A stretch of 63,930 bases of DNA, filler included, from Collodictyon triciliatum (GCA_043381765.1; 5 parts of 5 records of this genome joined end to end with filler, not necessarily neighbours in it); one strand, 5' to 3'; positions 4,089-60,800 are shown, numbered from the whole stretch's first letter. A program made the numbers and translations. Notes: a model not told the origin generated them from the letters alone.

Positions 4089-7000
4089 TCACTTTGATGA
4101 GCCTGTTTTGCTCTTTTGATGGGTCATCGCCGGATGAGTTCCTCTGGAGTCCACAAAGCAGCGAAGCTGAATCCCAGACGTGGTCTTTGAATACTTTTTG
4201 GTGTCCACCTCTTCCACTTCACACACTTTGCAACTCTCTGCAATAGTTGACATATTTGGTTCAAAGTCAACGTAGCAGATAACATCATATCCTTTCACAG
4301 AGACAAAAGGGAAGATTTTCTCGCGGTTCCAGTCCACGCTCTTTGTCGGCATCTCCACGAAAAAGTGAGGCTCATCAGGCGACCTAACAGTGAACTTGAC
4401 GTTGTCAAACCTTGCAGAAACTTGGACAAATATCTCAAAGTTACTTTTTAGTAATATATCTGGTCGTTCTTCGCTCACTGGGCGCCAAACTTGAATCGCA
4501 CTAAATAAGAACAATATATATTTTTTTAATTGTTTGTTGCATGGAGCGAGAAGGCAGATTGTCATTAATAAAGTAGAAAAACTATCATAGAATGTACACT
4601 TGAATACACCCATGTTTTAAAACAGATACAGTCACATATTATGTGTGAAGCAATCAATAGGGAAAAAGTTGTTGAAATAGATTCTGTACATGTAAGCGAT
4701 ACGATTTCTTACCTATTAATTTTCTGGCACATAACCACGCCACTTTTTGCAATGCTTGCACAAAACAGACGACGAATGTCCGTAACATAATCCAAATCAA
4801 CGCCTGGATTCTCTGGCAGCTCGCTTGTAAAGCCAAGGGCAATATCGGAATCTAGAGAAACTTTGTGTACTTTGACTGAAAAACAGCAGCCGTCGTGCTT
4901 GTCCACATCAATCCATCTGCCGTATGCATCGCCAAACGAGCGAAAGCATTTCCCAATTGAATATGACCACGTCTTCAGCATTTCATCCTTCTTGGATGAA
5001 CCGTGCTTGTTATCCGGAGGTGCAATATGTATCGGGATAGGGACCTGTCCTACGGCAAGTGAATGCTTGTCGGGGTCGTGGAATCCACAGTATTTTCCAT
5101 CAAAGGATATTTTCGGGGTGTTGGGCCCCAGTTCTTGTCCATACGGCTTCATCTTGTTTGATAATATATTAGGTAGCGTCCGCTGAAAGCCTAGCTTTGT
5201 GGGTCGATCGCCAAGGTTCAGATAAACAACCCCGCCTCGTGATAGGACATGAACATACGGTTTGATTTCATTCTCTGGAGATATGCCTTCAATACCATAG
5301 TATATGACTCCGTTGAAGGAGTAAAATAATGTATAGTTTTGTCCCTGGCGAATGAGGCCAACTCCATGTACTTCGGTAGTACCGTGGCTCGTGTAATTAC
5401 CTATCTTTTCATTAGGTAATTTTTTTCGTTCATTAAGGTGTGAGGGATAATTTATCTTATTTTCTACTTTGATCGTACTAAATCCCATTTCAAAGCACGT
5501 GTTTGATAGGTTTTCTACTTCGAAATAGAAAAATCCGTCACTCTCCAATATTGTTTTGATATCTCCGTAATACTCAGGCTTTGTTTCGAGCATATTCTGA
5601 GTAAGAATGTCTTTGTTTTTACCGCCATAAATCTTTTTCACTTTCGATGGGTTGGATGATATAATAAAATAATGTCTCTGATTAGATTATATACCTTATA
5701 TAATAAATAAATGCACTTAGAAATATAAGATGGTTATAAGGCATCTATATATATATGAATCGATAATTGAATAACATATATAGGAGGGTTGATACCTTTC
5801 GAGACCTAAAAATAAAAAAAAATACTAAAATCAGATTTACTTAAGTTATTCAGAGGGTCTTGATACGAAACAAATAATACAATATTTCTTTGGATGAAAC
5901 CAAATTTACGGGTGAATACCATTCTATCTATTTTGATGTAATACACAGCCAAAAAGCACATGTACCACAGCGGTGCAAAAAGTAGAGTAGAGAGGGTCAT
6001 TCCATATCGATGCATATTTGCATAAAACTCATACAGCCTTAGCCAGAACGAGTTATGTTCGTCTTTAACCTATAAGGAGAATATGAGTGCTAAAGTGGGA
6101 TTAAAATTAACCGAACATAATTAAATAACACAGATACCTCATATATACCACTACTGAGCTCAGAAAAAGACCTATCATTTAATTTTCAATTTAATTGCCA
6201 TGATATAATAGATTGAATAACTCAAATCAGAATGACCTCGCATATGACATTTCAAATATATGATCTCATCTATATAGCAATGTGCAAAATTCATATATGT
6301 ATCTGACCCTTCTGCATCTTTGAATATAAATTGAATAACTTGGACGATAACTATATAATATAATTAAAGAAAATAAGCCACTTATTAAAGAAAAGTTTAG
6401 TTCTGCGTAATCACATATATGCATAGCAATCCAATTTATTGTGCGTAGACAAAAGTAAGAAAAAATACCGACAATTTTAACTAGGATGTAAAAATTTAAT
6501 TGTAAGTAAATACATTTACAATTTTCAACTCACTTGATAATACTCTTTTTAAAAAGCTCAAAATCATGACAAGGATTAGGACAAGAACGGCCAAAATAAC
6601 GCCAAATATTATACCAACCAACGAAGTGATGAGGTCGACCCAAGAAGTGTATATTCTGACCCCATACAAGTCTGTTCTATTGAAGAAATGGTCATATGGT
6701 ATCAACTTGTTTTTGAAAAAAGACCAAGGGTCCATAGAGTTATCGTATTCCAAGTTTGTCCAGCACTCTCTCCTCTCAAATGTGCCCCATCTCAAAGGTT
6801 TCTGAAGGTATTTTCTGTAAAAACGAATGTAACAGGCTTTCAGAAATCGGTAAATAGGACGGAGGCAAAGCAGCAAGTTAATGGGTGCATGAAGTGCATC
6901 TTCCTGCATTTCCAATACAAGCTCGCAGAAAATAAGTTGGTATTCCTTCTTTGAGTCCTCGAATATTTCTTCGTATCTTTTGGTCAGGACAGCAATCAAA

Positions 7001-9068
7001 AGATTCAAAATTAATATATTGAGCATCGCGAGGTACATAAAATAAAAGAATGGACCAGCAGAGTCACTATTTTCATATATTGGATTGAGATCCAGCTCTC
7101 CAAACAAAAAAGTTGCAAAACTAAACACAACATCCTTTCCTGTCGAGAACTCAACTACATCTCGCCCAACGAGCACAAATATCGCAGAACCGAATCCGGC
7201 GACGAATATAGTCATCAACACCAAGAATACCACCATTTCTCCGAGGACATGAAACATCACGGTCAACATGATGCCAAACTTTTCGATGACCTGCAAGAAG
7301 TACAAAGTTCTTATCCATGAGAAGAAAATGAGAACGCTCAGAAAGTGTTGCTTTATGTAATCGTAGCGAACAATTTTGTGATAAGATGCCGAGTTCACAT
7401 CAGATACAACATCACCTCTAAAGTACTCGGAGGCGACATAATCTATGTAAATATGCATTCCTATCGTCAAAAAGAGTGTCAAGATGATAATCCAATCGAT
7501 AAGGTTCCACAAAGAGCTGACATAGACGCTGTCTTCCTCAGAGGCTTGGTCTAATTCATGCACAAAGAAACCGAAAGCATAAACCAAAAGAGCTATTTCG
7601 ATGATAAAAAACCAATTGTCTGTATTTCCGTAAATAGTTCTGTTGATGGTGAAAACTTTTGTGGTGACTACATGAGAGCCAGATGCGGGATATTCTATCA
7701 ACTGAATTAGATACGCCATCAAATTGGCATTGTCTCCAGAAATCAAGGCTTGTAAGAAAATGACTCGGGATTGTGAATCCACCCATCCATTTTCTTCGAG
7801 ATATTGGACTCGCTTGATTGCCTCTGTCTTGTTCGAATAGATATCCTGAACGAACCCGCCACCGTAATATTGAATGCGAAGATTGCCTGTTATTCCAAAG
7901 TCATTTGTTTCATGTTCACTCTTCCACTTAAATATTTCCTTGGATCCATAGTCATCATAATCAAGGTTTGCGTCATTATATGAAAGAGAGCATTTCTTCG
8001 GGACATTGGCCTGTTGTTCGTTAAAAAAGGGAGGACTATGGTCCCCACACTTTGTTAGCTTTGTTCGATGTTGTCTCAGCCGGATAGGAGATGCTAGACG
8101 ATAGTATGATAAAATTTCACCCTCACTCCGAGCTTGAGAAAGGTTTCCTTGCGCAAACCATCCTTCATATGCAAGAGGAATGAACGTGTTTTCCACATAG
8201 TTGAAGAAGCCAGCAGATACTCCACTTACATCCTTTGTGAAAGTGTCTTTTAAAGTTTTTGCAAAGTAAACTGAAGAATTATAATCCACGATATTTTGAT
8301 TTATTGTGTAATAGACTAATATAGTCAGGTAAATTGCAAATAAGAAAAAGTATCCGACAAAGTTGCCTCGAGGGGTTTGAGCATTTGGTATCAATCCTCT
8401 AAAAAATGTGACTACAAGGAATAGTTGTCGGTCAAAAACTTTAAAATTAAAAGGCCGCTTCTTCCTGTATTTGTCACTTTTCTGATTTGAATCATCTGAT
8501 GGGTCATCTTGGCCACCTTCTATAAGATCAATACGGTTTTTTTCAGGCGGATCCTGCTCCGAAATATGTTCTGAGGTCTCTTTGTTTGACTGCCCTTTCC
8601 TTTTGACATTTGCCATGCGTTTTTCATGACGAGTATTGACCAATCTCGTGCCAGGGCCCAAGTAAACTTTGTTTCGCTGTATTGTTTCTGAAGTCGAATT
8701 GAGCCATATACTTTCCACTTTTTTGGAAACAATAGGTTGGGACAAAAAGTATTTAGCCTTCGCTACCCTGCCCAAGGTAATATACTTTCCAGGAACCTCA
8801 TAGCTGCCGCGGTGTGTCTCTGAAACTTCAGCCTCCTTTCCTATTAATATCATCGCGTAGTAGTCATACATGATTGGCAAGCAAGGGTCTTTAGTGCCAT
8901 CCTTGCGTAATTTAGCTAGGAATGCCAAAAGTCTTTCTATGGGGTCACCTTGATGATTTTCATTAGTCACCATATTAATCAGGGTTGAACCCAGCTGCCC
9001 GCATAATGTATTGTCCTCTAGTTTGAATTTCTTCAAACATTTTAACGAAAATATTTCAGGTGGCAGAG
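4089..9068 (-). CDS. Polycystin-2/PKD2-like (TRPP) cation channel with N-terminal LRR remnant, extra hydrophobic segments and C-terminal SPRY-like domains; 5' partial
   Basis: Exons 9068-6520, 6069-5920, 5677-4713 and 4500-4089 join in frame with GT-AG sites (about 1358 aa). Polycystin TOP domain motifs (PIRLRQHR..C, YYGGGFVQDI, LEENGWVDSQSRVIF), six-TM core and pore (FLFGELD..GPFFYFMY..LILNLLIAVL). SPRY-like motifs FFYFEVE..FEMGFST..GVGL..LFYSFNG..KPYV..VYLNLGDRP. The exon starts with LPPEIFSLKCLKKFKLEDNTL. The channel call is firm; the join to the SPRY exons is inferred. Confidence 0.75.
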
Positions 9069-9069
9069 C

Positions 9070-9113
<44 letters not shown>

Positions 9114-9197
9114 AAAAGAAAAGAAAAAAAAAAGAAAAAGAAAGGAAAAAGAAATGAAAAAGAAATGAAAAAGAAAGGAAAAAGAAATGAAAAAGAA

Positions 9198-9297
9198 NNN
9201 NNNNNNNNNNNNNNNNNNNNNNNNNNNNNNNNNNNNNNNNNTTAATTAATTAANNNNNNNNNNNNNNNNNNNNNNNNNNNNNNNNNNNNNNNNNNNN
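9198..9297. other. Artificial contig spacer (44 N + TTAATTAATTAA + 44 N)
   Basis: Six-frame stop linker at 9242-9253; the same structure recurs four times in the window. Confidence 0.95.
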
Positions 9298-11149: not shown

Positions 11150-14100
11150 ATGCCAATCGACTCAAAACCAGCTGTAGTGCTTCTTTTTCTTTGCGGTAAA
11201 TATTCTAACAAATTATTTTTTTCTTGACAGATTTACTGTTTAAAAATACGGGTATGTTCTTTTAATTTCTTTTTCCTTCAATTACTGAATACCTATTAAA
11301 AATATAGGACTTACAATACTCAACAGCATTAGCTTGGCGAAAGGAGATGATTTTTTGATCAAAAATATGATTGACAAAGATTATTCAAACAGTTTTAATA
11401 GCGTTTGTGTTACTTTGGATGGATCTAAAGTTGTCTCAGGAAATGGTGATGGTAGTATTATTGTAATGAACCTTTCTAACGGTGCTGTGATTGAAAAAAT
11501 CTCAGGACATGACGGGTTTATCAATAGTGTTGCTGTTACTTTAGATGGATCGAAAATTATATCTTGTGGTTTAGATGGAACTATAAAAATCTGGAATTTT
11601 CTGGATGGGTCTCTTGTCCATAAACTAAACGATTTTTCAACTATCGGTATTTCTATCACACCGAATAATTCCATGATTATATCTTGGGGCGGCAATCAAA
11701 TCAAGTGTTGGGATATTACAGAAGGAAATCTTGTTCTTGAATTTACCGACTATAATGATACCGTTTTATGTGCCACAGTTACTCCTGATGGGTCGAACAT
11801 TATTTCTGCTGGGTTTGGCTACAACAGCGCCATCAATATATGGGAAATTGAGACGGGAATAAAGATAAAATCATGGAATTCCTATTCAGATACCATTAAC
11901 TGTATTACAATTACCCCAGATGGCCAGAAAGTGATCTCCGGTGACGATATAGGCTTGATTAAAATTTGGGATTTTATCGAAGGAGTTCTGATAAAAGAGG
12001 TTTACTCCAGCAATGGTGCTGTTATCTGCATTGCTATCACTCTTGATGGTAAAAAGATTATATCTGGAAGCTATTATAGTACAATAGATATTACAAATAT
12101 ATCCAATGGAACTGTAATAAATACACTAAAGGGACACTCTAGCTTCGTTAACAGTGTTGCTGTAACACCTGATAGTTCTGAATTAGTCTCAGGAAGCAAC
12201 GACGCTTCTATTAAAGTATGGGATATTCAAACAGGGACCATTATAAGAACATTTGGCTATGAAAACTGTCATGCTTATGCGATGGCTATCTCTCTTGATA
12301 GTCTACTAGTTATATCTGGGAGTAGTGATAATAAAATAAGAATATGGGACACATTCTTTCAATCTATTGAAAAATCATATTTTGGCCATACAGGCCCTAT
12401 AAGGAGCATTTCTATTACCTCAGATAAAATGTATGTAGTATCGGGAGGTGATGACCACATAATTAATGTTTGGAGACTTTCCGATTACATTTTGATTCGT
12501 ACACTTTTAGGTCATAAAAAAGCTGTGATAAGTGTCTCAGTGACCCCAGATAATTCAAAAATTATTTCAGGGAGTGATGACAATACGATAAAGGTCTGGA
12601 GTCTTTCTTCTGGGACCTTGACACGCACATTATCAGGCCATAAAAGTTCTGTTAGAAGTGTGGCCACTTCATTTGATGGTTTGCATATTGTGTCCGGGAG
12701 CAACGACCACACAATAAAAATATGGCGCATCTCTGATGGTAAAATAATACGCTCCGTGGTCGGCCATACAGACGCTGTAATAGTTGTCAAAACAACACCA
12801 GATAATTCAAAAATCGTTTCTGGAAGTGCAGATAATACAATTAAAGTATGGAGCCTTTTTCATGGCAGTTTGATAAGGACACTACGTGGGCATGTAAAAT
12901 TAGTTAACTCAATTGTGATTACTCCCGATGTTTCTGGAATCATATCGGCCAGTGACGATGGCACAATCAAATTATGGAGTTTTTCCGACGAAGAATACTC
13001 CAAAACAATACATAGCACTTCAGGACCAGTTATGAGTCTTGCCATCGCTCATGATGGATTAAAAGTGTATTCTGATGGTGCTGACGCAAAAATACAAGTA
13101 TGGAATCCATGTATTGGCGGTTTGTATAACTCTTTTTACAAATCATGTACTCCATGCCCAAAAGGCACCTATAGCTCTGGATTCAGTAGGAACTGCACCT
13201 TATGTCCTTCTGGAACCTACAATCCTGCATCTGGTCAGTCGTCCTGCCTGGAATGCGGCTCTGGTTCAACAAATGATATGAAAGGTTCTACAAGTATAAA
13301 TGGTTGCAAGTGCCTTCGAACCACATATTTGGATGTGCTGTCAAAGTCTTGTAGGGATTGTCCAAAAGGATTCATCTGTGACGGAAGCAGTCAAATTTCT
13401 ACTGCTCCTGGATTTTGGAGGGTCCCAACTCTAGGAAATGAGTATATCTCACAAGAATGTCTCAATAAAGTTGCTTGTCCAGGAATGAATGAAACCTGTG
13501 GGAGTGGATACACGGGACCATTGTGTGGTGCATGTGAGGAAGGATTTGGAAAAACAGGTGTTTTTTGTTCCAAGTGTCCAAAAGAAGCCTTCAACATAAT
13601 CTTGTTGATACTAGGTACATTACTTCCTCTATCCTTTGCCTTTTTCATGATAGAACAATCAAGGCAACCCAAAACTGGGAATATTCAAATACTTAAAACA
13701 CTTTCGACCCACTACCAAGTTCTATCATATTTGGCCAACTTTGATGTAAATTGGGGGTCCACAATAACTTCGATTATGAAAATTCCCGCTTTATTTTCGT
13801 TCTCCTTAACGGTGGACAGTTATCCGGTAGACTGTCAATTCCTTTTAAGTGTTTACGAAAAGGCTCTCTACACGATGATTAGTCCGCTCATACTTCTAGC
13901 GGTCGTCCTTCTTATCATTTTATTTAAAAAATCTTGGATGCTATATAAAAAAGATATTGCCCCGGAGAATATAAAATTTGATCAAATCAAGCAAGAAATC
14001 ACATATTCCATGTTGGTGTTGCTATTTTTCGTGCACCTATCGATTACTTCAACGATATCACCCATATTTCCCTGTGAAAGAATTGGAAATGAGAGTTTTT

Positions 14101-14783
14101 TGAAAGCAAACTTGTTGATATCGTGCGATGATGATAACTACATTTATTGGAGGAATGTTAGCATCGTTTTTTTAATTATCTATTGTTTGGGTCTCCCATT
14201 TTATTACTCCTAAGGATTATCCAGAAAAGAAAAGCACTAATGAATCCTACATCGAGAACATATGCTCTGATGAGATTTCTTGTTAATGGTTACAATGACC
14301 AGTATCCTTTCTGGGAAGTCGTCACCATGATACAAAAGTTGGTGATTGTTCTTATCAGCACCTTCTTCTCTGCATCCATGCAAATTTACTTTGGTTCTTT
14401 ATTGCTATTCATTGTGATAGGTTCAACAATTTACCTCAATCCCTTTATGTCTAATGTGCTGAAAATGTCACAATTGCAGTCTCTCATAGTACTATACTTT
14501 ACAATAATGGTCAGCCTATTGTTCCGTTATAGTAACTTGAGTGAAGTGAGTAAAACAGTATTGATTTTTTTGATTTTTTTTGGCCAACGGTGCAATTGGA
14601 GCTAGCTTTCTTTCAAGAGCAGGTCCATACTTGGTTAGGATTGCATTAAAAAGAATTGTTGGCATGGCTGAGTTTTTATTCGAACTTCTCTCTGCTATCT
14701 GCTTTGTTCCTCTCTTATCGAGGAAAGAGTCCTGGAAAAAAGGGACAGACAAGGAGATGGACGATTTTTCAACTTCTAAATAA
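11150..14783 (+). CDS. Signal peptide + 14 WD40 repeats + Cys-rich (ephrin-receptor/TNFR-like) stalk + multi-pass membrane domain; two single-base frameshifts in the 3' part (error or pseudogene)
   Basis: ATG 11150, exon 1 11150-11195, main exon from 11308 (MPIDSKPAVVLLFLC-GLTILNSISLA). Fourteen WD40 units at about 11380-13106; CTPCPKGTYS..CTLCPSGTYNPASGQSSCLECGSG; CGSGYTGPLCGACEEGFG; several hydrophobic helices. The ORF continues after frameshifts near 14197 and 14578 (FLVNGYNDQYPFWEVVTMIQKL). Confidence 0.8.
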
Positions 14784-15533
14784 CAGGAATGTTGATTTAA
14801 AAATAACAAGAAATCTCTTGTTTTTTGAGCCATCGGCATTAAGTTTGATAATCGCCAAACTTGATGCGTCATTTACAGAATTGAAATAAAAATAAAAATT
14901 GAATGAATTAAAGAAAATGGGGAGCCTATATATTATAAATTCAATATATATGTATTAAGGCAAACTGCTGAATTCGATTGCTGAAATGTAATTTAACACA
15001 GATAAATCCACGCACATGAAATATTTTCTTCTTCCATTGGGAGAGTGAAGAAAGAACTATGAATGGGTTTAATTGATTTTAAAGCTTTTTTTTTTAGAAA
15101 AAAAAATCTGCCCATCTTTACATTTACTTGAAGTTTGTTCCACTCCTCTTTCAGAAGAAAATAAAGTCTCATTATCTGTTTCATAATTTCAATCACTTGA
15201 CTTTCATAGGTAAGGGCACATATTTATAGTGCCTCAGTTTTTCTTGTTGGTTTGCAAAGTTCGATGTTGCTGCTTCAAAAGTTGTTTAAACCGATCAAGT
15301 AGCTAACACTACCTAATCAAAGAGAGAGAGGCCACTGGCTTTCGATCTGCGACCCTGACCGCTCCTGAAGAAAAACCCTCCCAAGAGCTCGACTACCAGG
15401 TTTTCAACCAAGAACAAAATATCGGAAAGTATCNNNNNNNNNNNNNNNNNNNNNNNNNNNNNNNNNNNNNNNNNNNNNNNNNNNNNNNNNNNNNNNNNNN
15501 NNNNNNNNNNNNNNNNNNNNNNNNNNNNNNNNN

Positions 15534-15641
15534 CCATAAAATACCATAAAATACCATAAAATACCATAAAATACCATAAAATACCATAAAATACCATAAA
15601 ATACCATAAAATACCATAAAATACCATAAAATACCATAAAA
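15534..15641. repeat. 10-bp tandem repeat (ATACCATAAA)n
   Basis: About 11 perfect copies next to an N gap. Confidence 0.95.
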
Positions 15642-15673: not shown

Positions 15674-18600
15674 GACTTCCATTCGACTCGAAGAAATATC
15701 GCTTTTTACGGATATTTTCCTGCGAAGGAGGCGATTACTGTATTTCTACTAATTGCCTCGCTTTTTACAATAGTGGGAACTGTGAAAAGGTGCGCATTTC
15801 TATATCAAAGATGAAAATATAGTACTAACACATTCAAAAAAGAGTTAGTATGAAGGATGCCTGCTCCTATTCTCAAGAAGACCTCCTTTCCATGGAGAGA
15901 GACCATGCCTTTCGCATTCTACTTGATTATCACGAAGAAATATGTATGCTGAACGACTATGACCCTCCAATCTACAAATGGCGTGATGAAAAGAATACGC
16001 ATGATGGTATTTCTAGGAATACAAATGAGAATTTGGGTGAGCGATGATTTTTGTAAGAATATGAAGAAATTCAAGGATATGCACCAAAAATTTTATAATA
16101 TTTTGAAATATATAAATCAAATACCCAAATAGCTGAAAATCAGTATAATCTATTGGTCCAACTATATACTGACTTCAACGGAGATAACTGGAAGAATAAT
16201 AGTAACTGGAAAAATAATAATATTCCAACATGTTCCTGGTTTGGAGTGAAATGTGATTATTCATGCTCAAATGCTCAAGCGCAGGTTGTTTAATAGTCTT
16301 ATAGGAAAAATTATTGGATTTATTACTCACCACCCGTATCAATCAGAATCAAAGCTGTCCTGTTGTCGAATTGAACTTGACCAGCAACAACCTTTTTGGA
16401 GATTTTTCAGATTCATACAGAATTCTCGAGCGTCTTCCTCTTGACATTCTAAATTTTCAGGACAATACCATATTTGGTACTCTCCCTGACTTAAAGATGT
16501 CAAATTTAATGACACTCAATCTTGGCAACAACTTATTAACGGGTAATGCTTAAATTCCATTATATTCTGTTTTCAATTTTATTACAAAACATAAAAAATG
16601 CTATCAGAGCCAGCAGGCTAAGAAATCACATGTTGCTTCGTTGAGGACCAACTTTCAGTTTTTTGAAAATAGGGACAATCCCAAATTTCTCTCATATGGA
16701 ACGGCTGTCAGAGTTATTGCTTTCTGAGAACCAACTGCGCGGTACCAATATATTTGCTTTTTAATTAATATCCTATCAGAGACAAATTTTTACAAACAAA
16801 GACGAAGGGCTACACATTGTAATGATTTATTTTAGGCACCATTCCAAATTTCAATAACATGCCACTCCTGAAAAAGATTTCCCTGTCAAAAAATCGAATA
16901 TCAGGTAAAAAAAAAACCAAAGCGACTATTATTTAATATGCTGGCTAATATATCAGTGTGAGTATATTTCTTAAAATCGCACAGGAACTTTGCCTGATTT
17001 CGACTTCATTCCGGATTTGACTGATTTCGAATGCACTGAAAACCAATTGAATGGTGAGTAGATTCCTTATCCTTCAAATTTTCGTGTATTTGAGCTTATA
17101 TTCTTGACTTTTTTTTTTTTAACATTTTCACCTCATCTAGGTACGATACCGAATTTTCGAAGCATTCCATCGGTCACTAAAATACTCTTATCTTACAATA
17201 GATTGACAGGTTAATCAATATTTGTTAATGATAACTTTTTTTTATTGAGAAGAGAGGAGAAACAAGGACTGGAACTATCATATCCAACTTATTGAAGCAA
17301 GAATGATATTATCGTCACCGTTGTTAAAAATTCATCATATTGCTCGTCTCATAAATTGCTCTCTGACTTTTGAATATTGATGATATTTGAATTTCCTAGG
17401 AAGCATCCCAGACTTTTCGAAGATTCCGATATTGAATATACTAACATTAGATGTAAATCAATTAACAGGTGACACAAATGCATATCAGTAAATTAATTTT
17501 CCTTTTTTTTTTTTAAAAAAAAAAAGTGCTCATCAATTAATCATTGATTTGAATATCTCTTTGTAATTTTTGCTGATAAATATTTTAATTTCAACCTAAG
17601 TGAAATTTACGTAAATATTCTAGGGAAAATACCTAATTTTAAAAATGTAAAAAATCTATGGGAGTTGAATTTGAACAGCAACATATTTAACGGTCAGTTG
17701 TAATGCCAGTATCTAATCAGTTGCGAGCCACTTTTCCTCTTTTTTTTTCTGGAATTTTTCATTTAGCGGCATGATTGATGAAGTTTTAAGATCTATCAAA
17801 ATTTGTCTAGGTGGTGTTCCTAACTTTTCAAACATAAACGGTATGAAGTATCTATATCTTTACGGAAATGAGCTAACAGGTTTGGTGCCATCTTACTCCA
17901 GAAACAAAGACAGATTTATGCCGTTATCGTTAATTCTAGTTTTTATATCATTCGGACTGGGTAAGTTATCTCTCTCTTTTTTTCCATTTATTCGTCTCTT
18001 GTTTTTCCGAAAAAGGTACCATTCCGTGTTGGGACAAAATGCCGTGGTCGATTTATATATCACTTTCCAGTAACCTGTTGAATGGTACTTTTCCTCACAC
18101 TTTTATGGCCTCAATTTTTCTATTATTTCTTTTAGTACTTAATTGATTATTTGTGCTCATTAATAAGGGACAATACCAAATTTTGACTGCAATCCATTGA
18201 TCGGATACATTTTTTTGTATGACAATAGGCTGGAGGGTAATGATTGGGAATGTTATTCTAGAACAAATCATCGTTGGAATTAAAAAGTGCATTCAGTCAA
18301 TATTTTCACTTCCCTATATATTTCGGCTGAATTTAGGAACAATTCCGGACTTTGGAAATATTCCAAAGCTTATACTTTTTTCTGCACATAGCAATATGCT
18401 GAGTGGTAAGATTTCGAAATAAGTACCTCAAGTAATTCACCAGCTTCTGAAAATATTGGAATATTATTCCGAGAGTTTTGATAATAATTAATAGTATTAA
18501 ATCAGGGTCACTTCCCGATTTTAAGGATGTTAGCATGTCTTCTATAATTCTCCTTCATTCAAATGAGATTAATGGTGCAGTTTTTTAAAATATTATTCAG

Positions 18601-21582
18601 ACAACAAGACTCATTAACCATCCTTTGTAATTTTTTTTCGAAAAAATATCAGTCCTGTAAATAAATACTTTCTTTAACCACAGGAACAATACCAAATTTC
18701 AAAAATACACCGATACTGAAAATTCTGAATTTATCAAACAACAATATTTCAGGTATTTTATTCATTTGAAATAGTTGATTTGTCACACATTCACAGAAGA
18801 ATGATTCTAAAAAATAACTCTGTGACAGGAGAAATCATCGATTTTAGTAATTTAGGGTATCTCGAAATACTCGATATATCTGGAAACAACATCACTGGTT
18901 TGGTTTTATTTTTTCAATTTGTAGTTTTGAGTTGGAACGTATGACCTTCTGTTGCCACTTGCTCACCCGTCTTCTTTATTTTAATTGGAGCAATACATAT
19001 GCACTCGCTCTGTAGGAACGATACCGCTTTTTAAAAACCTCACAAGGGTGAAATCTCTTTCCTCGTATGACAACAAACTCTCTGGAAGCCTTCCTAGTTT
19101 TTCAAGTTGTCCCATCATTGAAGAAATAATTGTATTCCAAAACAAACTCAACGGAACTTTACCTTCATTCGATTTATTAAAACTTAAAAGAATCGATTTG
19201 AGCCAAAATAAGATAGCAGGATTTATACCACCCTCCTGGAAGCTAGGTTCAATCCAAAAGATAGATTTATCGATGAACTACCTGTCCGGCTCTATTCCCA
19301 AATATTTTGAACAATTATATCAGTTGAAATCACTTGTCTTGTCACACAACCAGTTTGAAGGAAGCATGCCAGCCAAGTTTTGGGGTCTTCAGTACCTTGT
19401 ATCCGTTGACCTTCGCAATAATTCCTTTTTTGGAGATATTGGAGTATTTCTTACTCCAACTTTCTCCAATAGTGGTGTAAACTACGCCTATGATACTTTA
19501 TTACTTGATGATAATGAATTATATGGAGAGTTAAACTGGAGGATATTTGATTATATCAATAATGTGAAAATTTTGAGTTTAAGGAACAACAAAATCGACA
19601 GTTTAGGAGAAGTGACAAGTCTGATGAAATGGATTCGATTTGATGTCTCTGGAAATCCGATAGTGGGAAGCATACCTGATTCCTATCAAAGATTTATAAA
19701 GCTGGACTATTTTGGACTGAAGGATACTCTTATGAATCATTACTCATCAAACTTTATTCCTAGTTACATGAGATATAAAGAGCCATTCAATTTAGAGGAC
19801 AATTTTGATTCATACATTTGCCCTTCAATAATCTCAGTCACAGACTTGGTTGAAACCGAAGTCAGTATAAATCCTGGGTACTATGATTATGTGTTTTGCC
19901 AATGTCTTCCTACTTACTTTGGTTTCGGCAACAATTGTATTCGATGTCCACGAGGATGTGAGTGTACAGATGGGCTATCCCTTGTAGGATGTCACGTATC
20001 TCCCAGCGTGATTGAGCCTAATGACATTACACCCTGCCCTTTTGCACCTGCTTGCGAGACAATCATTGAAGACAAAACATCTTATACTAATCACACGCCG
20101 AGAATAAGCACACAATGTGCTCAAGGTTACGAACAGCGTGCTTGCTCCAAATGCAAGAATGGATACGGAAGGAGAGGGAGAGCATGCTTTGAATGTCATG
20201 AATCCACGATTCATGTGACTCTTACTCTGAGTTTAATTTGCATCATACTATTCATTTCATTCTTATATTTCAAGGAGGTATCACAATCAGGTATACTTTT
20301 TTACATATATTTGCAGGTTTTTTTTTATTTTTAGAATTCTACAAGATAAGATTATTCGCTTACAACTACATCTTGAAAAAGGAAAGCTGCGCATCGTAAT
20401 GTTTCATGTTCAAACACTCTCTGTTATTTCATCTGGGATATTCGAGTCTGATGCATCAAACAATTTCTTTGGATTTTTGTCTTCTTTAAGTTCCATACAG
20501 TTTCCCAATCTGTCATGTGTCTTAGGGCAGTACAATATGCTATACATATTGCTTTTTAGTTATTCCAGAATTCCCATCATATCGTTCGTGGGATATGTTG
20601 TGTATAAATATAGTCGAGGACATATGCATAACAAGGTAGGCAGTTTGATTTTTTTATTCAATTCCTTTGACTTTTGAATTAATGATGCATTGGTAATCAC
20701 AGGCTGTTTTTATCACCATAAGTCTGCTTCTCTATATTTATTATTCGGTTGCAACTGATGTTTTCGGAGTTTTCGGATGCACATTATATGATGGCGGGGA
20801 TGAATCCTGGTATCTTAATTATGCACCTTGGGTAAAATGTAGCCCCGCGTCCTCTGAATACAGAGCATTACTTGGAATTACGCTTCCCGTTTTCTTTTTA
20901 TTTTTGATAGGATTCCCTGTCTTTGTTTGGCGCAAGGTGAAAATTATGGTTAAAAAACATGGATATGAGCCAGAGGCACGCTACGGATTCATGTATCTAC
21001 CATATAAAGAGGTACCCTTGGTTATCCAGATTGTGTATTTTACTGTAAGAATTTGCATAAAATTTTTAGATGTTTAGTTTATGTTGTAATCTTAGAGCTA
21101 TCGGTACTGGGACTTTGTGATTGTTTGTCGAAGAATTGCATTTTCGTTCATCACTAGTGTCATTCCCTACACGCATCCATCGGCATATTTTGTCTTGTTG
21201 GTGATTGTTATACAAGTAAGAATAATATCATCGTATGTAAAGCACAGTTTGCGTCTGCTTACATTTGTTCTAATTGAAAACTTGATAGACATCCATATGG
21301 ATTCACATGAAAGTGCAGCCTTATAAAACAAGGCTGGAAAACCAAATGGAACTCTCCAGCCTTTATCTTATTTTCATCTCTTTCTTTCTTCTTCTTTTAT
21401 CAACACTCTTTGGCTCAGAAACATGGATTACCGTTCTTTTAATACTTTTGAACACCTTTTGGCTTATCTGTGTAACCACTGTGGCTTTTCTTATTCCATT
21501 TTGGACTGGGTTTTCATTCAAGCGATACCTGTTTGAAATGGCAGTCTTAAAGCGAGGAAATCGAGACCATTTCTTGTCGTGA
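15674..21582 (+). CDS. LRR receptor-like protein: hydrophobic leader, LRR N-cap, plant-type LRRs, Cys-rich stalk, multi-pass membrane domain; start codon not resolved
   Basis: N-cap LVQLYTDFNGDNWKNNSNW..TCSWFGVKC; 13 exons of 69 nt between 16673 and 18897; large exon 19016-20290 with more LRRs and CQCLPTYFGFGNNCIRCPRGCEC..CAQGYEQRACSKCKNGYG; TM exons 20382-20635, 20703-21011, 21096-21215 and 21289-21582 (ARYGFMYLPYKE-SYRYWDFVIVCRR). All joins are in frame with GT-AG. Confidence 0.88.
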
Positions 21583-22935: not shown

Positions 22936-23423
22936 CGAGGTCTCTGTTGGTTTACTTCTTTTTCTATTTTTGACAGAGCGATTGCGGGCTAATAAAAAAA
23001 GACCAATGCTTTTGTTCCTGTAAAATGGCTTGGTTTGCAATCGTTTATGACTTGCCCAAGCCTGCCAATCGAGCGTATGTATGCCGACAGACAAGGATAC
23101 CGAGGAGCCTGCCAACACAGTCTAGAAGCGACAGGAGTGGCATGCGAATATGAAAGTGGAGAAACAGATGCAAGTTCCGAAAAAGAGCCAAAAAAAAGGG
23201 GAAAAAATGAAGAAAAAGAAAAAGAAAAAGAAAAATGAAAAAAAATGAAAGGAAAATGAAAAGAAAAAACTTGTCTGATAAAGGGCCATTTCAGTGCGGG
23301 CCACCCCGCGAATCCCTTTCAATCTAGTGACAGGCTGCAGAGTCGTAGGCCGAGCACGATTCCAGCAGGAGACAGCAGACATACACTCGCCCGCAATAGT
23401 TGAAGCCGTCCAGGCTGCACTTA

Positions 23424-25425
23424 ATGGAGGAAGGAAACATCACTGTTGCGGTTCGTGTGCGGCCACTCGGAACTACGGAACGCATTCGCGGTGATCGCAT
23501 TTGTACAATCGCAGGAAAGTCAAGAAACAGCGTTGTCCTGCAGGGAGTCGAGTCCAAGGACGATCAGGTTTGTTCATTTGTATATGCATTTATATCTTTT
23601 TTATATGCATATTTACCGATTATTTGATGATTTTTGTTATTTTTTAAATTATTTGTTGGATTAATTGTATTAATTGATATTTTGGTTCATTTAGATAATT
23701 TGTTAATTGATTTTTTGGTTATATACTTCTTTGTGTATATTTGTTTATTTCGCAATGTTGACTTATCCATGCTGACGTTCGTGCTGTCTAGGAGTCTGAG
23801 TTCCCTGTCGATTTTACTTTTTGGCCTGATGATGGCAACGAGCTTTTCTTTGAAAAAATAGGTCGTGAGATCTTGAAGAATGCATGGTCTGGTTATAACA
23901 GCACAGTGTTTGCATGTGAGTCATATTCCTACAAACGATCTCTTTTGATATCACAGATCGATTCAGCGTTTCTTTTTTTTTTATTTTATTTGTTTATTTC
24001 TTTTGTCCGCGCTTTATCAGATGGACAGACTGGAAGTGGAAAGACACACACGATGATGGGCTCGTATCATGATGCAGTTAATTTCACCTCATTTACTGGG
24101 GAACGAAGAAATTATTTATTTTGTTACATATTCCGATTCTAGACCATTATTTATGTGTCAAAACAATTAGCAGACCATTCGCTCACTTCGAATTGTTTCG
24201 GGCTTCGTAGGGATTGATTCCCAGATTGTCAGAGGCTCTTTTTGCGGAGGTAGAGACAAAAGGAAAACGCGTCGATATTCTTGTAAATTATGTTGAAATC
24301 TATGGGACACAGGAAAAATTGTCCGATTTGCTCTCTGAAAAGGAAGCGCCTCTTCGTGTCAAACAAAACAAAGATGGAGGGTTTGGATATCACACCCATC
24401 TCACAGTCCCTTTTATCAAGTTATAATGCATCGGAACCAAAACAGCGCTTCATTTTTCTTTGAACACAACACAATACCTCTGGTTATCGGGGCAGTAGGA
24501 TGAAAAAAAAAACAATCACATAAAATGCTATTGACGTACAGATTCTATGTCGACGGATTGACGAGTTACAAAATCACGTGCCCACAAGATATGGAGCTAT
24601 TTATTCGTGCCGGAAACCAACGGAGAGCCACCGCCGGGACCGAGATGAATCAACAAAGTTCACGCTCTCATGCGATTTTCTCTGTCATATTTTCACAAGT
24701 GATGGGTGATGAGGCACGATAACTATCTTTCTTTTCATCTATTTAATTTTTTTTTAAAGGCCTGTTGCCGATTGAAATTCAGAAAATGAACACAATTTTA
24801 TTGCAAAATACTTTTGTGTTTCGATAAATTCATGTTTTTTTTTTTTTTTACATACACCTGGAATGATGCAGATGATAATTTGACTGATTCTTAAGAATAA
24901 CAGTCACTAATATTCAGCCACAATAATGCCATCACTTTTCTAACAATCAGCATCATTCGACTGTAGGAAAACGGAGAACATAAACTCGTGCTCAATTCTG
25001 GAAGAAACAAGTATGGGTCAGCCCGAAGAACGAGTCAAATCAAGTTGGTTGATTTGGCTGGAAGTGAAAAACTCGATAAAAGCAAAGCAACTGGACAAAG
25101 GTCAGCGGGAAGACGAAAGTCATACATTTTTTTCGTTTCTTTCTGAACCAATAAAAGCAACGTCTCGGATTGCTTTCTTACTGTTCTTTTTTAAGGGACC
25201 CATAAGTTTTTTTTCTTTATTCGATTCAAAGGAGCTAGAAATAAAAATCTTCAATGAATTGTAGTTGATGAAGATACTTAAAAATTCACTAAGTGACATA
25301 ATCAAACTAAATGAACACACAAAGACAAGTCGAGGCCTCTGCAATTAATTCGGCGCTAACGACCCTTCGACGAGTTTTGAATGCTCTGATTGAAAAAACG
25401 GCACACATTCCATTTCGAGATTCGG
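23424..25425 (+). CDS. Kinesin motor domain protein, kinesin-3-like; 3' truncated at the contig end
   Basis: Seven exons give [36 protein letters not shown] (P-loop), GLIPRLSEALF, YVEIY, MNQQSSRSHAIF (switch I), IKLVDLAGSE (switch II) and HIPFRDS. Confidence 0.9.
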
Positions 25426-25496: not shown

Positions 25497-25594
25497 AAAC
25501 AAAACAAACAAAACAAACAAAACAAACAAAACAAACAAAACAAACAAAACAAACAAAACAAACAAAACAAACAAAACAAACAAAACAAACAAAA
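25497..25594. repeat. 9-bp tandem repeat (AAACAAAAC)n
   Basis: Directly visible; intronic, ends at the spacer. Confidence 0.95.
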
Positions 25595-25694
25595 NNNNNN
25601 NNNNNNNNNNNNNNNNNNNNNNNNNNNNNNNNNNNNNNTTAATTAATTAANNNNNNNNNNNNNNNNNNNNNNNNNNNNNNNNNNNNNNNNNNNN
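25595..25694. other. Artificial contig spacer
   Basis: TTAATTAATTAA at 25639-25650 between 44-N runs. Confidence 0.95.
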
Positions 25695-27749: not shown

Positions 27750-43750
<16,001 letters not shown>

Positions 43751-53321: not shown

Positions 53322-53421
53322 NNNNNNNNNNNNNNNNNNNNNNNNNNNNNNNNNNNNNNNNNNNNTTAATTAATTAANNNNNNNNNNNNNNNNNNNNNNN
53401 NNNNNNNNNNNNNNNNNNNNN
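53322..53421. other. Artificial contig spacer
   Basis: TTAATTAATTAA at 53366-53377, preceded by (GAT)n and (GT)n. Confidence 0.95.
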
Positions 53422-54040
53422 AAAGAAAAAGAAAAAGAAAAAGAAAAAGAAAAAGAAAAAGAAAAAGAAAAAGAAAAAGAAAAAGAAAAAGAAAAGAAAA
53501 AGAAAAAGAAAAAGAAAAAGGAAGAGAGAAAAAGAAAAAGGAAGAGAGAAAAAGAAAAAGAAAAAGAAAAAGAAAAAGAAAAAGGAAGAGAAAAAGAAAA
53601 AGAAAAGAAAAAGGAAGAGAAAAAGAAAAAGAAAAGAAAAAGGAAGAGGAAAAGAAAAAGGAAGAGAAAAAGAAAAAGAAAAGAAAAAGGAAGAGAAAAA
53701 GAAAAAGAAAAGAAAAAGAAAAGAAAAAGGAAGAGGAAGAGAAAAAGAAAAGGGAAGAGAAAAAGAAAAGGGAAGAGAAAAAGAAAAGGAAGAGGAAAAG
53801 AAAAAGAGAAAAAGAAAAAGAGAAAAAGAAAAAGAAAAAGAGAAAAAGAAAAAGAAAAAGAGAAAAAGAAAAAGAAAAAGAGAAAAAGAAAAGAGAAAAG
53901 AAAAAGGAAGAGAAAAAGGAAGAGAAAAAGGAAGAGGAAAAGAAAAAGAGAAAAAGAAAAGGAAAAGAAAAAGGAAGAGAAAAAGAAAAAGAAGAGGAAG
54001 AGGAAAAAGACATTAAAGAGAAAAAGGAAAAGAAAAAGAA
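53422..54040. repeat. About 620-bp polypurine tract built from (GAAAAA)n variants, upstream of RTEL1
   Basis: Almost exclusively A/G on the + strand. Confidence 0.95.
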
Positions 54041-54134
54041 ATAACCCTCCTAGCAAATATTCTTCCTTCTAGCTTTGAGGCCATAGCGACGAATATTCGG
54101 TGCTCCTATCAGGCAACCTAGAGACAGACTAAAT

Positions 54135-57800: not shown

Positions 57801-60800
57801 GAATCCCCATATCATCAAAAAGGAGCAAATATGGGTCGGCATCATAAAAAACGGACCTGGTAATCAACAACTGTCATCTGCTTACACAAATAGAGACAAT
57901 GATGGCTACAAAACGGATCTTGGAAAGGCAATATGTGGGTATTCTCTCTTGTGACAGTTGTCGAGAAAATCATATAATTTTGCATAGCTTTGAAAGTAAT
58001 TCGAAACTCGGTTTAGTTCATTATTGTAGGGTGATACCGGACGGGGTTTTAGTTTTCTTCCCGTCATACAGTACCCTCCAATCATTGATTGAATTTTGGA
58101 AGGCAGTAAAAAAAAAAATACGTTTTATATCTACTTTTTTTTTTTCAGCCGCATTGTATACCTAGATTTCCATAAAATTTTAATCAAGCAATCTGCTGTT
58201 ATATTCTCAGATGAAGCTGTATACGTTATTAGGGTGATAAACCTACAATATGGGATCAAATATCCCGACTGAAGCCGCCATTTATAGAACCCAAAGCAAC
58301 CAACGAGTTGAATGACGTAATTTGACATAGAACCCAGTAAGATTTCAGATTCAACTAACATTTATTTTGGTATGTATGTGTATTTCTTAGATAATGGAGG
58401 ATTATTATAAATCGATTGATACTGGGAAAGGTGCATCTTTCTTTGCTGTGTGCAGGGGAAAGGTTTGTAATAAATTTAGCTCAGGCCATTGATATAGTGC
58501 ATTTTTTTCTTTCTGATATTATTTTGGATGATGAAATTATCATATAATTAACATCTAGATTTCTATATCTCTACATGTTTTTTTGTGATATAAGGTCAGC
58601 GAGGGATTAAATTTCGCTGATGCATATGGGCGGGGTGTAATCATAACAGGAATTCCTTATCCGAACTACCAAGACCCTAAGGTTTGGGTACATATTTGTA
58701 ACAAGTGTACGTGTATATATAGTGATATTTGGGTCATTCGAGTAAACGAGATGGGAGAGCGCATTAAAAAGAAAAAGTCGATTTTGAGCAATATTGTATA
58801 TTCAACTCTTTTGGTTTTGGCTAGGTTACGTTGAAGCGACAATATTTGGACGAAAATGCAAAGGTTCGATCATTTACATATATTTACAAATTTGATTTTG
58901 GATTTATTTCGCAGATTCTTTCCTTTATTCTATTCAAGGGAATATTTATTTTGAAGATATTAATATTTTTTTATTTTACCTTCACAGGGGACAATTAGTC
59001 ATATCACTGGTTCATCGTGGTACTCTCAACAGGCTTCTAGGGCTGTCAATCAAGTCTGCAACTGAATATTGTTATTGTTGTTATTGTTGTTATTGTTGTT
59101 ATTGTTGTTATTGTTGTTATTATTGTTATTATTGTTATTATTGTTATTATTGTTATTATTGTTATTATTGTTATTATTGTTATTATTGTTATTATTGTTA
59201 TTATTGTTATTATTGTTNNNNNNNNNNNNNNNNNNNNNNNNNNNNNNNNNNNNNNNNNNNNNNNNNNNNNNNNNNNNNNNNNNNNNNNNNNNNNNNNNNN
59301 NNNNNNNNNNNNNNNNNTATGTATGTATGTATGTATGTATGTATGTATGTATGTATGTATGTATGTATGTATGTATGTATGTATGTATGTATGTATGTAT
59401 GTATGTATGTATGTATGTATACCATTCTTATTATATCATATTTCAAGCTTCAATTAATGTTCGCAATATTTTACTTTTATTTAGCCCGGCATGTACCCAG
59501 AATGAATGAAACCACCATATTTGTGTCCAGAAGGCCGCAATCTGTCTCTATAAAATCGCTTGTTCGGTGGGATGTTTTTTATGGATGATATGCTGAAGTA
59601 ACCAGAAGTCGTAGATATAGGACCTGCTGCATATTTTTTTTCTTTTAATAAGATTGGCTATATATAAAAATAAAGGGATGCTCTTAGTCGATTGCCAACT
59701 GGCGAGGGAACAAGGGCTGATATATGTTCGTTGGTTCGCGACTCCCAGTAAAAACTTCTATTAATTAGTTCGTACTTTTTATAGCTATCGACGATAATAG
59801 TCACAAACAACAAATTACATTTTTATTGTCTTTTTTACCACATATCCAGGTTTATCGTCCCCAACACAACAGAGAACAGGCTTGTCAGCATTGTGAATGC
59901 TGCATTAGATAGACTGCACTATGAGAAAGACCCATGTGTTCGCTACGATGGAAATCGGCAACGGTGGATATATACTCATTTTGGCCGCAGACTTAGTGAC
60001 TTTGGTATTATTATAATTATTGTTATTGTTATTATTGTTATTGTTATTATTGTTATTGTTATTATTGTTNNNNNNNNNNNNNNNNNNNNNNNNNNNNNNN
60101 NNNNNNNTATTGTTATTATTGTTATTGTTATTATTGTTATTGTTATTATTGTTATTGTTATTATTGTTGTTATTGTTATTATTATTATTTGCAATATAGA
60201 AACCTTCTTATCAAGGTATAATAGTAATCATGTGAATATAACACGTATAATTGGTGAATTGTCTGACTCCAATTTGATAATTTTTAAATTAATTTAATAT
60301 AGGCTATAGGCAGAATTATTCGGCACAAAAACGACTTTGGGGTTATCGCATTCTGTGATGGGCGGTATAATTTGAAACCATTATTGCGTCTTTCCAAATT
60401 ACCATGCCATTCACTTCTAGTTAGGCGTTATCTCATATTTGAAAATCTCTCATGTTGTTCATCTAAAGTCCTCTAGAAAAAAATGTAACTTTCTTACTAA
60501 AGACCACATTTCCTAAAGATTTTCAGCGCCAGATATGAAGGATAAGTTATCTATGTGGCTTCGTCCGCATGTGCAGATAGTCGACTCGTTTAAAGATTCT
60601 CTTGTGTCTATCCAAAAATTCTTCAAGGTGGTACCTGAAGAATGCAAACTAGTAAGACGCAAGGTATATTCCGAGTCATTGAACAACTTAGAAATTTCTG
60701 CATCTTTATCTATCAGCCACTCTAAAATGGCCATGGATAGATGATGTATGGACTGATTTTATCTCTTATAGGAGATAACATACGAGCGAGACGACAGTGC

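Follow-up and report, generated by a model that had tools for sequence, protein, structure and literature searches.

Does a gene in which repeat after repeat is carried by its own exon, every exon of the same length and in the same phase, keep these exons as interchangeable parts, or does it preserve the trace of how the repeats once multiplied? The question is raised by a receptor gene in a 63,930-nucleotide stretch of DNA (hereafter the window), made of parts of five records of the Collodictyon triciliatum assembly GCA_043381765.1 joined end to end with filler. A previous sequence-only reading of this stretch had pointed to thirteen consecutive 69-nt exons, each encoding one leucine-rich repeat (LRR) of 23 amino acids (aa), and had proposed that they could form a combinatorial device for receptor diversification. 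We find that the exons of this array are ancient, with no sign of recent duplication or shuffling, and the interpretation that we consider probable is that the region is an expressed, constitutively spliced gene that carries the footprint of an ancient tandem exon duplication, and not an active diversification machine.

The array of single-repeat exons

In a script check on the sequence, all 13 exons of the array (Table 1) were exactly 69 nt long, with AG before and GT after each, and the introns between them measured 76-190 nt. Joined together, the exons read through as a single open frame of 299 aa, or thirteen units of 23 aa, each exon encoding one LRR of the consensus G-[TS]-[IL]-P-[ND]-F-x-x-x-P-x-L-x-x-L-x-L-x-x-N-x-L-x. 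If the introns that flank the array on either side are included, 14 introns follow one another between 16543 and 19015 (the upstream exon ends at 16542, not 16543). All are GT..AG and in phase 1, and each of the 14 junctions falls at one and the same point of the repeat, where it divides the Gly codon as G|GN, in agreement with the split Gly codon of the sequence-only reading. Retention of any of these introns would break the protein, through in-frame stops in 13 of them and through a frameshift in the 14th (136 nt, mod 3 = 1). Searched with a DNA profile of the exons (nhmmer) at E<=3.3e-4, the 63.9-kb window yields these 13 sites and no others, which excludes chance as the source of the pattern.

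Within the repeat, Gly1 and Asn20 are invariant (13/13 each), position 3 is always I, L or V (13/13), Pro4 and Phe6 are near-invariant (12/13 each), and positions 7, 8, 11, 13, 16 and 19 are highly variable across the 13 exons. The sequence-only reading was therefore right in describing a conserved scaffold with varying exposed residues, and the strings that it had quoted in illustration (SELLLSE, TDFECTE, KYLYLYG and IYISLSS) are all found in the exon translations. Its remark that the track of open reading frames (ORFs) misses most of the array also holds, as only exons 7, 8, 10 and 13 (4/13) lie inside a right-frame stop-to-stop ORF of at least 60 aa. It is likewise a matter of simple arithmetic that any subset of the exons can be dropped or duplicated without a frameshift, since all 13 are in phase 1-1 and have a length that is a multiple of 3.

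Age of the array exons

The pairwise DNA identity of the exons averages 0.47 (range 0.32-0.64), and by codon position it is 0.48, 0.62 and 0.31, as compared to 0.27 expected from base composition. Adjacent exons, with an identity of 0.48, are no closer to each other than the remaining pairs. The array introns are mutually unrelated, sharing matches of 9-17 nt in low-complexity sequence only. The orphan 69-nt LRR exons for which a search had been proposed are absent from the window: across its 63.9 kb, introns included, nhmmer detected neither orphan nor reverse-strand LRR exons, and a protein hidden Markov model (HMM) run on the six-frame translations of the introns found no LRR exon, the best E being 0.5. 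An HMM of the 13 exon units scores 30.6-43.2 on these units versus at most 9.9 on the intronless units of the same gene, a comparison that is biased towards the array, the model having been trained on those same 13. With saturated synonymous sites and unrelated introns, the exon pattern reads as a historical footprint.

Homologues and splicing of the array

The best homologues of the receptor are transcriptome proteins of the same architecture with 32-40% identity, and all six of the best that were looked up (6/6) belong to Diphylleia rotans. When the spliced window protein was compared with 404 proteins (blastp), the best identities were ~42% for a partial isoform and ~40% for a full-length protein. 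The dynein heavy chain encoded in the window is 92% identical to that of D. rotans, versus 70% for the next best match. Judged by these similarities, the host of the receptor gene is a diphyllatean (collodictyonid, CRuMs) flagellate other than D. rotans, and the receptor family appears to be large and divergent in Diphyllatea. The 23-aa period is family-wide and is seen in the cDNA-derived D. rotans homologues.

Evidence on splicing comes from the runs X1 (organism A) and X2 (organism B), which are not recorded as RNA and were taken as cDNA on the basis of their spliced contigs. An X1 contig of 1458 nt, ~97.8% identical to the window in the large exon that follows the array, runs from the 3' part of exon 10 through exons 11, 12 and 13 into the large exon, following the genomic order and skipping no exon. 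Its joints (18404>18505, 18573>18683, 18749>18826 and 18896>19015) are all GT..AG, and this one contig confirms 4 of the 14 array introns by cDNA (18406-18505, 18575-18683, 18753-18828 and 18898-19015); its loose end at 18361 we take to be a template-switch oligo. The same contig is unbroken over 19015-20194 in the large exon, with joints at both ends, and the downstream LRRs were rightly called intronless, 19016-20290 being a single exon. Further downstream, the introns 20291-20381, 20636-20702, 21012-21095 and 21216-21288 are confirmed by X1 and/or X2. In the last of these the X2 acceptor lies 4 nt upstream (21285, GT..TG) of the AG used in X1 at 21288, and the 4 extra bases would shift the frame unless the sequence of organism B differs there. 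X2 also contains an unspliced piece of 292 nt (18387-18677, 17 differences) that could be DNA, pre-mRNA or a relative, and two freshwater metagenomes, X3 and X4, gave only ~150-nt pieces, with 99-100% identity, in keeping with the identification of the host, a freshwater flagellate. For exons 1-9, splicing is suggested by the canonical sites, by the stops or frameshift that retention would bring and by the unbroken 23-aa period in the cDNA-derived homologues, and we presume that their inclusion is constitutive as well.

The array pieces covered by X1 have one listed difference from the window. In the large exon there are 26 differences, affecting 15 non-synonymous and 8 synonymous codons, and the ratio of non-synonymous to synonymous rates (dN/dS) is 0.36 (Nei-Gojobori, 392 codons, large exon only). 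Ten of the 26 differences in this 1.18-kb exon fall in a hypervariable patch of 35 nt (19461-19495), where an irregular loop that separates LRRs changes from …TFSNSGVNYAYDT… to …TLSSRGVNYTYDS….

The D. rotans homologues can also be compared with one another. Among Trinity isoforms of four homologue clusters, 14 pairwise comparisons gave none (0/14) with an internal indel of a multiple of 23 aa; there was one 1-aa insertion and one 12-aa gap, and the remaining pairs were collinear and differed at the ends, mostly through 5' truncations. The 12-aa gap (GPIPNFCCIPNL), at residue 548 in the comparison of P0124 and P0128, starts exactly at the repeat Gly and leaves Val. An acceptor lying 36 nt within the exon downstream of a phase-1 Gly intron, if used as an alternative, would have this effect (G + TN), which hints that the phase-1 Gly intron position may be shared in Diphylleia. 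The gap itself is probably splicing noise, because the same transcript ends in an apparently retained intron.

The receptor and its membrane module

The encoded protein consists of an LRRNT cap, ~26 plant-type 23-aa LRRs, a Cys-rich stalk and a multi-pass C-terminal module. That the gene encodes a multi-pass receptor, as the sequence-only reading had it, is borne out by the homology to D. rotans proteins, by an AlphaFold2 (AF2) model and by the translation. The ectodomain has the features of plant-type extracellular LRRs, namely an LRRNT_2 cap and after it GxIP-containing repeats, in units of 23 aa; the usual length of plant LRRs is 24 aa. It would sense a ligand and be coupled to a channel-like membrane module.

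For comparisons with the Pfam family PF06011, the C-terminal module of the D. rotans protein P0122 was used as a stand-in for the transmembrane (TM) part encoded in the window. A search of 1.84 billion representatives brought up 1312 relatives of P0122 at E<=1e-3, and among the matches listed the module is C-terminal in most, in host proteins whose lengths range widely. Of 23 long relatives scanned, 19 have a Pfam match, with LRR, FG-GAP, NIDO, CUB, ANF_receptor and beta-helix (/LNR) ectodomains; 5 of the 23 match PF06011, two of them with scores (31.3 and 34.9 bits) that exceed the cut-off of 28.5 bits. PF06011 is also matched by 18 of 44 aligned short relatives at E<=0.01, with a best E of 3.9e-12, and in the ESM Atlas P0122 adjoins PF06011-labelled clusters with a top score of 0.97. 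The AF2 model of P0122 is confident (pLDDT 87.4). Searched against the PDB, the model of the TM module gave nothing at E<=1e-3 with Foldseek and a profile search of the PDB sequences gave nothing below E 0.02. The best Z in a wide VIA-align search was 9.4, on pannexin, LRRC8 and generic helical bundles, a level that does not rise above the noise among helical proteins.

The C-terminal module, with ~8-9 predicted TM helices, appears to be distantly related to the fungal TRP-like/Flc family PF06011, and the output domain of the receptor is probably a divergent TRP-like/Flc-type module that may act as a channel. Compared with the fungal members of PF06011 (TrpR of A. nidulans and Flc1 of C. neoformans), the likeness is one of distant sequence kinship of the C-terminal module, whereas the family of the Diphylleia module carries huge LRR, FG-GAP, NIDO, CUB, ANF_receptor and beta-helix ectodomains. 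In the large P0122 module family, a Cys-rich stalk links varied and interchangeable ectodomains to a PF06011-like multi-pass part. This suggests a widespread and unstudied protist sensor-channel class, possibly one not yet described.

How the array may have arisen, and what it may do now

The mechanism that we infer for the growth of the array is tandem duplication of one exon-plus-intron unit. Each copy would then carry along the phase-1 intron that splits the Gly codon, and each central repeat would have one exon of its own, because the duplicated unit was an exon together with its intron. A long divergence after the amplification would have left the synonymous sites saturated and the introns no longer alignable. 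The intronless repeats that flank the array may have lost their introns, or they may be repeats of a different, older subtype. It could instead be argued that introns entered a formerly intronless array independently, each time at a proto-splice site (…AG|G…) that 14 repeats have in common. The AG|G context found at 6 of the 14 phase-1 junctions of the array (7 of 19 over the whole gene) is indeed proto-splice-like, and the intronless state of the flanking repeats of the same gene would fit as well. However, 14 insertions at an identical codon position and in an identical phase are far less parsimonious than the duplication of one unit, the 13 exon units form a subtype of their own, and the junction context is imposed anyway by the conserved x-L-x-G coding; parallel gain of the introns is thus extremely improbable. 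Duplication would still be at work if unequal crossing-over added, deleted and exchanged 69-nt exons between alleles and paralogues, as the large and divergent receptor family in Diphyllatea might allow and as a like architecture underlies the shuffling reported in Ectocarpus ROCO genes (PMC3341825) and in Tetrahymena (PMC6564038). Ongoing shuffling of this kind is unlikely, given that the exons are only 32-64% identical, with near-random third positions and with neighbours no more alike than other pairs, that the introns are unrelated, that the window holds no orphan, non-coding or reverse-oriented LRR exons, and that exons 10-13 are kept in the ~98%-identical strain represented by X1.

The remaining possibility is that the diversity is generated at the level of the transcript, the symmetric 69-nt exons being skipped in varying subsets such that one gene would give many LRR ectodomains of differing length and surface. 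Any such skip keeps the frame and removes exactly one turn of the solenoid, and there is a precedent in the human NLRs, whose LRR exons are frame-preserving and in which exon 5 of NLRP3 is alternatively skipped (PMC6642158). The 12-aa gap of P0124 at the repeat Gly could also be taken to mean that splice choice varies in D. rotans, if its link to an intron is accepted, but the gap is half a repeat in a transcript with an apparently retained intron and looks like noise. Moreover, the sole cDNA contig over the array carries exons 10-13 in order, none of the 14 D. rotans isoform comparisons has an indel of a multiple of 23 aa, and the 14 array introns are canonical GT..AG, as are the five other introns of the gene. 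Cassette splicing at this locus is therefore quite unlikely. If exons were skipped after all, the locus would offer a test of how splicing can generate receptor diversity in a protist. The wider proposition, that a unicellular predator skips subsets of exons, stochastically or under regulation, and so displays a splicing-based LRR repertoire on a TRP-like module, strikes us as very improbable; if true, it would place a splicing-based receptor repertoire in the deep-branching protist lineage CRuMs. The combinatorial device proposed by the sequence-only reading is thus not supported, the order in the contig being intact, the isoforms free of whole-repeat indels and the exons anciently diverged. 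That reading had itself stated that a single constitutive isoform, a fixed exon order among strains and purifying selection at exposed sites would make the array an ordinary ancient duplication pattern. A fixed order is seen for exons 10-13 only, in one ~98%-identical strain, and with exons that are old and show no sign of recent shuffling, the array looks like such a pattern by that standard.

Several points weigh against the interpretation of an expressed and constitutively spliced gene with an ancient duplication footprint. RNA cover is limited to exons 10 (part) to 13, exons 1-9 being uncovered in X1 and X2, and the cover consists of a single assembled contig, which by construction loses rare isoforms and gives the comparison low power. 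The isoform test in D. rotans was made on transcriptome-derived paralogues at 32-40% identity. Concerted constraint is another way in which the 13 units could have come to cluster so tightly. A metagenome search for genomic DNA of relatives gave 79 loci, all matching the generic LRR part alone (query residues up to ~286), and with the Cys-rich or TM part in none of the 79 (tblastn), the exon structure of no relative could be read from them. As for the membrane module, P0122 itself has no Pfam match, and since there is also no clear match in the PDB, the link to PF06011 is transitive.

Comparison with other one-repeat-per-exon genes

The precedents that had been invoked, in Ectocarpus and in the vertebrate NLRs, do exist, and others can be added. 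The LRR-ROCO genes of Ectocarpus siliculosus contain arrays of a 72-nt 'type I LRR exon' (Zambounis et al. 2012, PMC3341825). As in the receptor gene, each LRR occupies an equal-length, frame-preserving exon in candidate receptors, and the exon unit opens with the Gly of GxxPxxL…LxxLxLxxNxLx, apparently at the position in the LRR where it opens here. The Ectocarpus unit is 72 nt or 24 aa, in contrast to 69 nt or 23 aa here, and the proteins are cytosolic ROCO GTPases and not membrane receptors. Furthermore, related non-coding and reverse-strand LRR exons in introns, together with copy-number differences between recent duplicates, are described in Ectocarpus, while the window contains no orphan exons and the exons of its array have diverged anciently.

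In Tetrahymena there are tens of thousands of 90-bp LRR exons with phase-2 introns, and their arrays have been attributed to clonal exon duplication (Xiong et al. 2019, PMC6564038). Tandem equal-length exons in protist LRR genes and an extreme bias to a single phase are common to both cases, whereas many of the Tetrahymena exons are young and species-specific, and here there is one gene in view, with 69-nt exons, phase-1 introns and old copies. The LRR-receptor kinases of plants, as surveyed in rice, have single-LRR exons of 72 nt, separated by phase-2 introns that split the first Leu of xxLxLxx, an arrangement that the authors explained by exon duplication followed by intron loss (PMC3050792). 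They resemble the gene described here in their extracellular plant-type LRRs, their LRRNT cap, their one LRR per short exon, their conserved intron position and the absence of introns from some genes or parts of genes; they differ in having a kinase output in place of a multi-pass module, as well as in exon length, and since both the phase and the codon differ (phase 2 in Leu there, phase 1 in Gly here), the intron position is not shared with plant LRR-kinases. In the human NLRs, frame-preserving LRR exons make an alternative use of repeats possible, and an NLRP3 isoform without exon 5 has been demonstrated (Hoss et al. 2019, PMC6642158), unlike the array studied here, where no skipped isoform was seen in one contig (exons 10-13). 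The NLRs further differ in being cytosolic proteins with another repeat type and larger exons.

The array thus shares a known principle of exon duplication, and what is new is the exon length, the phase, the intron position, the lineage and the receptor architecture. In a non-exhaustive search of the literature, supplements left aside, we found neither an account of LRR exon arrays with 69-nt units and phase-1 introns nor one of this receptor family in Diphyllatea. The difference between 69 nt with phase 1 in Gly and the arrangements in plants (72 nt, phase 2 in Leu) and Tetrahymena (90 bp, phase 2) implies several independent origins of one-LRR-per-exon arrays. The gene would be a clean example of repeat growth by exon duplication in CRuMs/Diphyllatea, a group from which, to our knowledge, almost no gene structures have been described.

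Gene model

The exons of the gene are collected in Table 1. At the 5' end, residues 22-140 of D. rotans P0121 align to 15847-16290 (tblastn, E 1e-6), the LRRNT_2 match reaches 28.4 bits versus a cut-off of 20.7, and the donor at 16284 with the acceptor at 16347 is the combination that has an open frame and fits the homologues. The large exon encodes ~9-10 further LRRs (Pfam LRR_1/LRR_8/LRR_4), the first four of them in the 23-aa register, and is 40% identical to P0121 over 429 aa. A signal-peptide exon was not found upstream, and may be hidden by the N gap near 15.4 kb or lie on its far side. Runs of N mark assembly gaps at ~15400-15640, 25560-25650, 29280-29380, 31540-31930, 53370-54070, 59200-59330 and 60080-60120, bordered by simple or low-complexity repeats (poly-T/A, AAG/GAA-type and short tandem units). 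The gaps indicate a draft assembly, from which part of the receptor gene's 5' end may be missing.

Table 1. Exons of the receptor gene, in coordinates of the window
Feature	Position	Strand	Basis
Putative N-terminal exon, Cys-containing pre-LRR region	15849..16038	+	tblastn with D. rotans P0121; AG 15847-8, GT 16039; borders inferred
LRRNT exon (…NWKNNNIPTCSWFGVKCD…)	16134..16284	+	PF08263 LRRNT_2, E 2e-6; predicted borders
Exon with first ~2.5 LRRs, no internal intron, ends G|gt phase 1	16347..16542	+	Sequence
LRR exon 1, 69 nt	16673..16741	+	Splice sites, frame, DNA profile
LRR exon 2, 69 nt	16836..16904	+	Splice sites, frame, DNA profile
LRR exon 3, 69 nt	16985..17053	+	Splice sites, frame, DNA profile
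LRR exon 4, 69 nt	17141..17209	+	Splice sites, frame, DNA profile
LRR exon 5, 69 nt	17400..17468	+	Splice sites, frame, DNA profile
LRR exon 6, 69 nt	17624..17692	+	Splice sites, frame, DNA profile
LRR exon 7, 69 nt	17811..17879	+	Splice sites, frame, DNA profile
LRR exon 8, 69 nt	18016..18084	+	Splice sites, frame, DNA profile
LRR exon 9, 69 nt	18168..18236	+	Splice sites, frame, DNA profile
LRR exon 10, 69 nt	18337..18405	+	3' part (from 18361) and donor confirmed by cDNA, X1 joint 18404>18505
LRR exon 11, 69 nt	18506..18574	+	Both borders by cDNA
LRR exon 12, 69 nt	18684..18752	+	Both borders by cDNA
LRR exon 13, 69 nt	18829..18897	+	Both borders by cDNA
Large intronless exon: LRRs, LRR C-terminal region, Cys-rich stalk, first TM helix	19016..20290	+	Pfam, X1 contig
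TM-module exon	20382..20635	+	Flanking introns 20291-20381 and 20636-20702, X1 and X2 joints
TM-module exon, most conserved motif (…FGCTLYD..WYLN..PW..C…)	20703..21011	+	cDNA and homology
TM-module exon	21096..21215	+	cDNA
Last exon, stop 21580-21582	21289..21582	+	X1 joint 21215>21289; translation

Other genes in the window

The upstream neighbour of the receptor gene (11289-14900, + strand) has the same plan with another ectodomain, in which a run of WD40 repeats (PF00400, E 3.5e-81) is followed by an ephrin-receptor-like Cys-rich region (PF07699, E 1.9e-11, with a weak match to DUF7630) and then by several hydrophobic helices. An extracellular WD40 propeller, as this gene appears to have, would be unusual. 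Its membrane part has no similarity to P0122 by tblastn at E<=1e-3. A large ORF on the - strand (6496-9249) has, by eye, the look of a polycystin/TRP-type channel, with several TM helices and an extracellular region, and contains one LRR-like motif at 8991-9068.

Downstream, a multi-exon gene at 23400-25400 (+ strand) is presumably a kinesin, judging from a P-loop motif (…GQTGSGKTHTMMG…) in ORF fragments. The gene for axonemal dynein heavy chain 2 (32873-43750, + strand) is one uninterrupted exon of 10.9 kb and 3625 codons, in contrast to the intron-dense receptor gene, and the GC content is 0.47-0.50 at the dynein gene versus 0.30-0.35 around the receptor.

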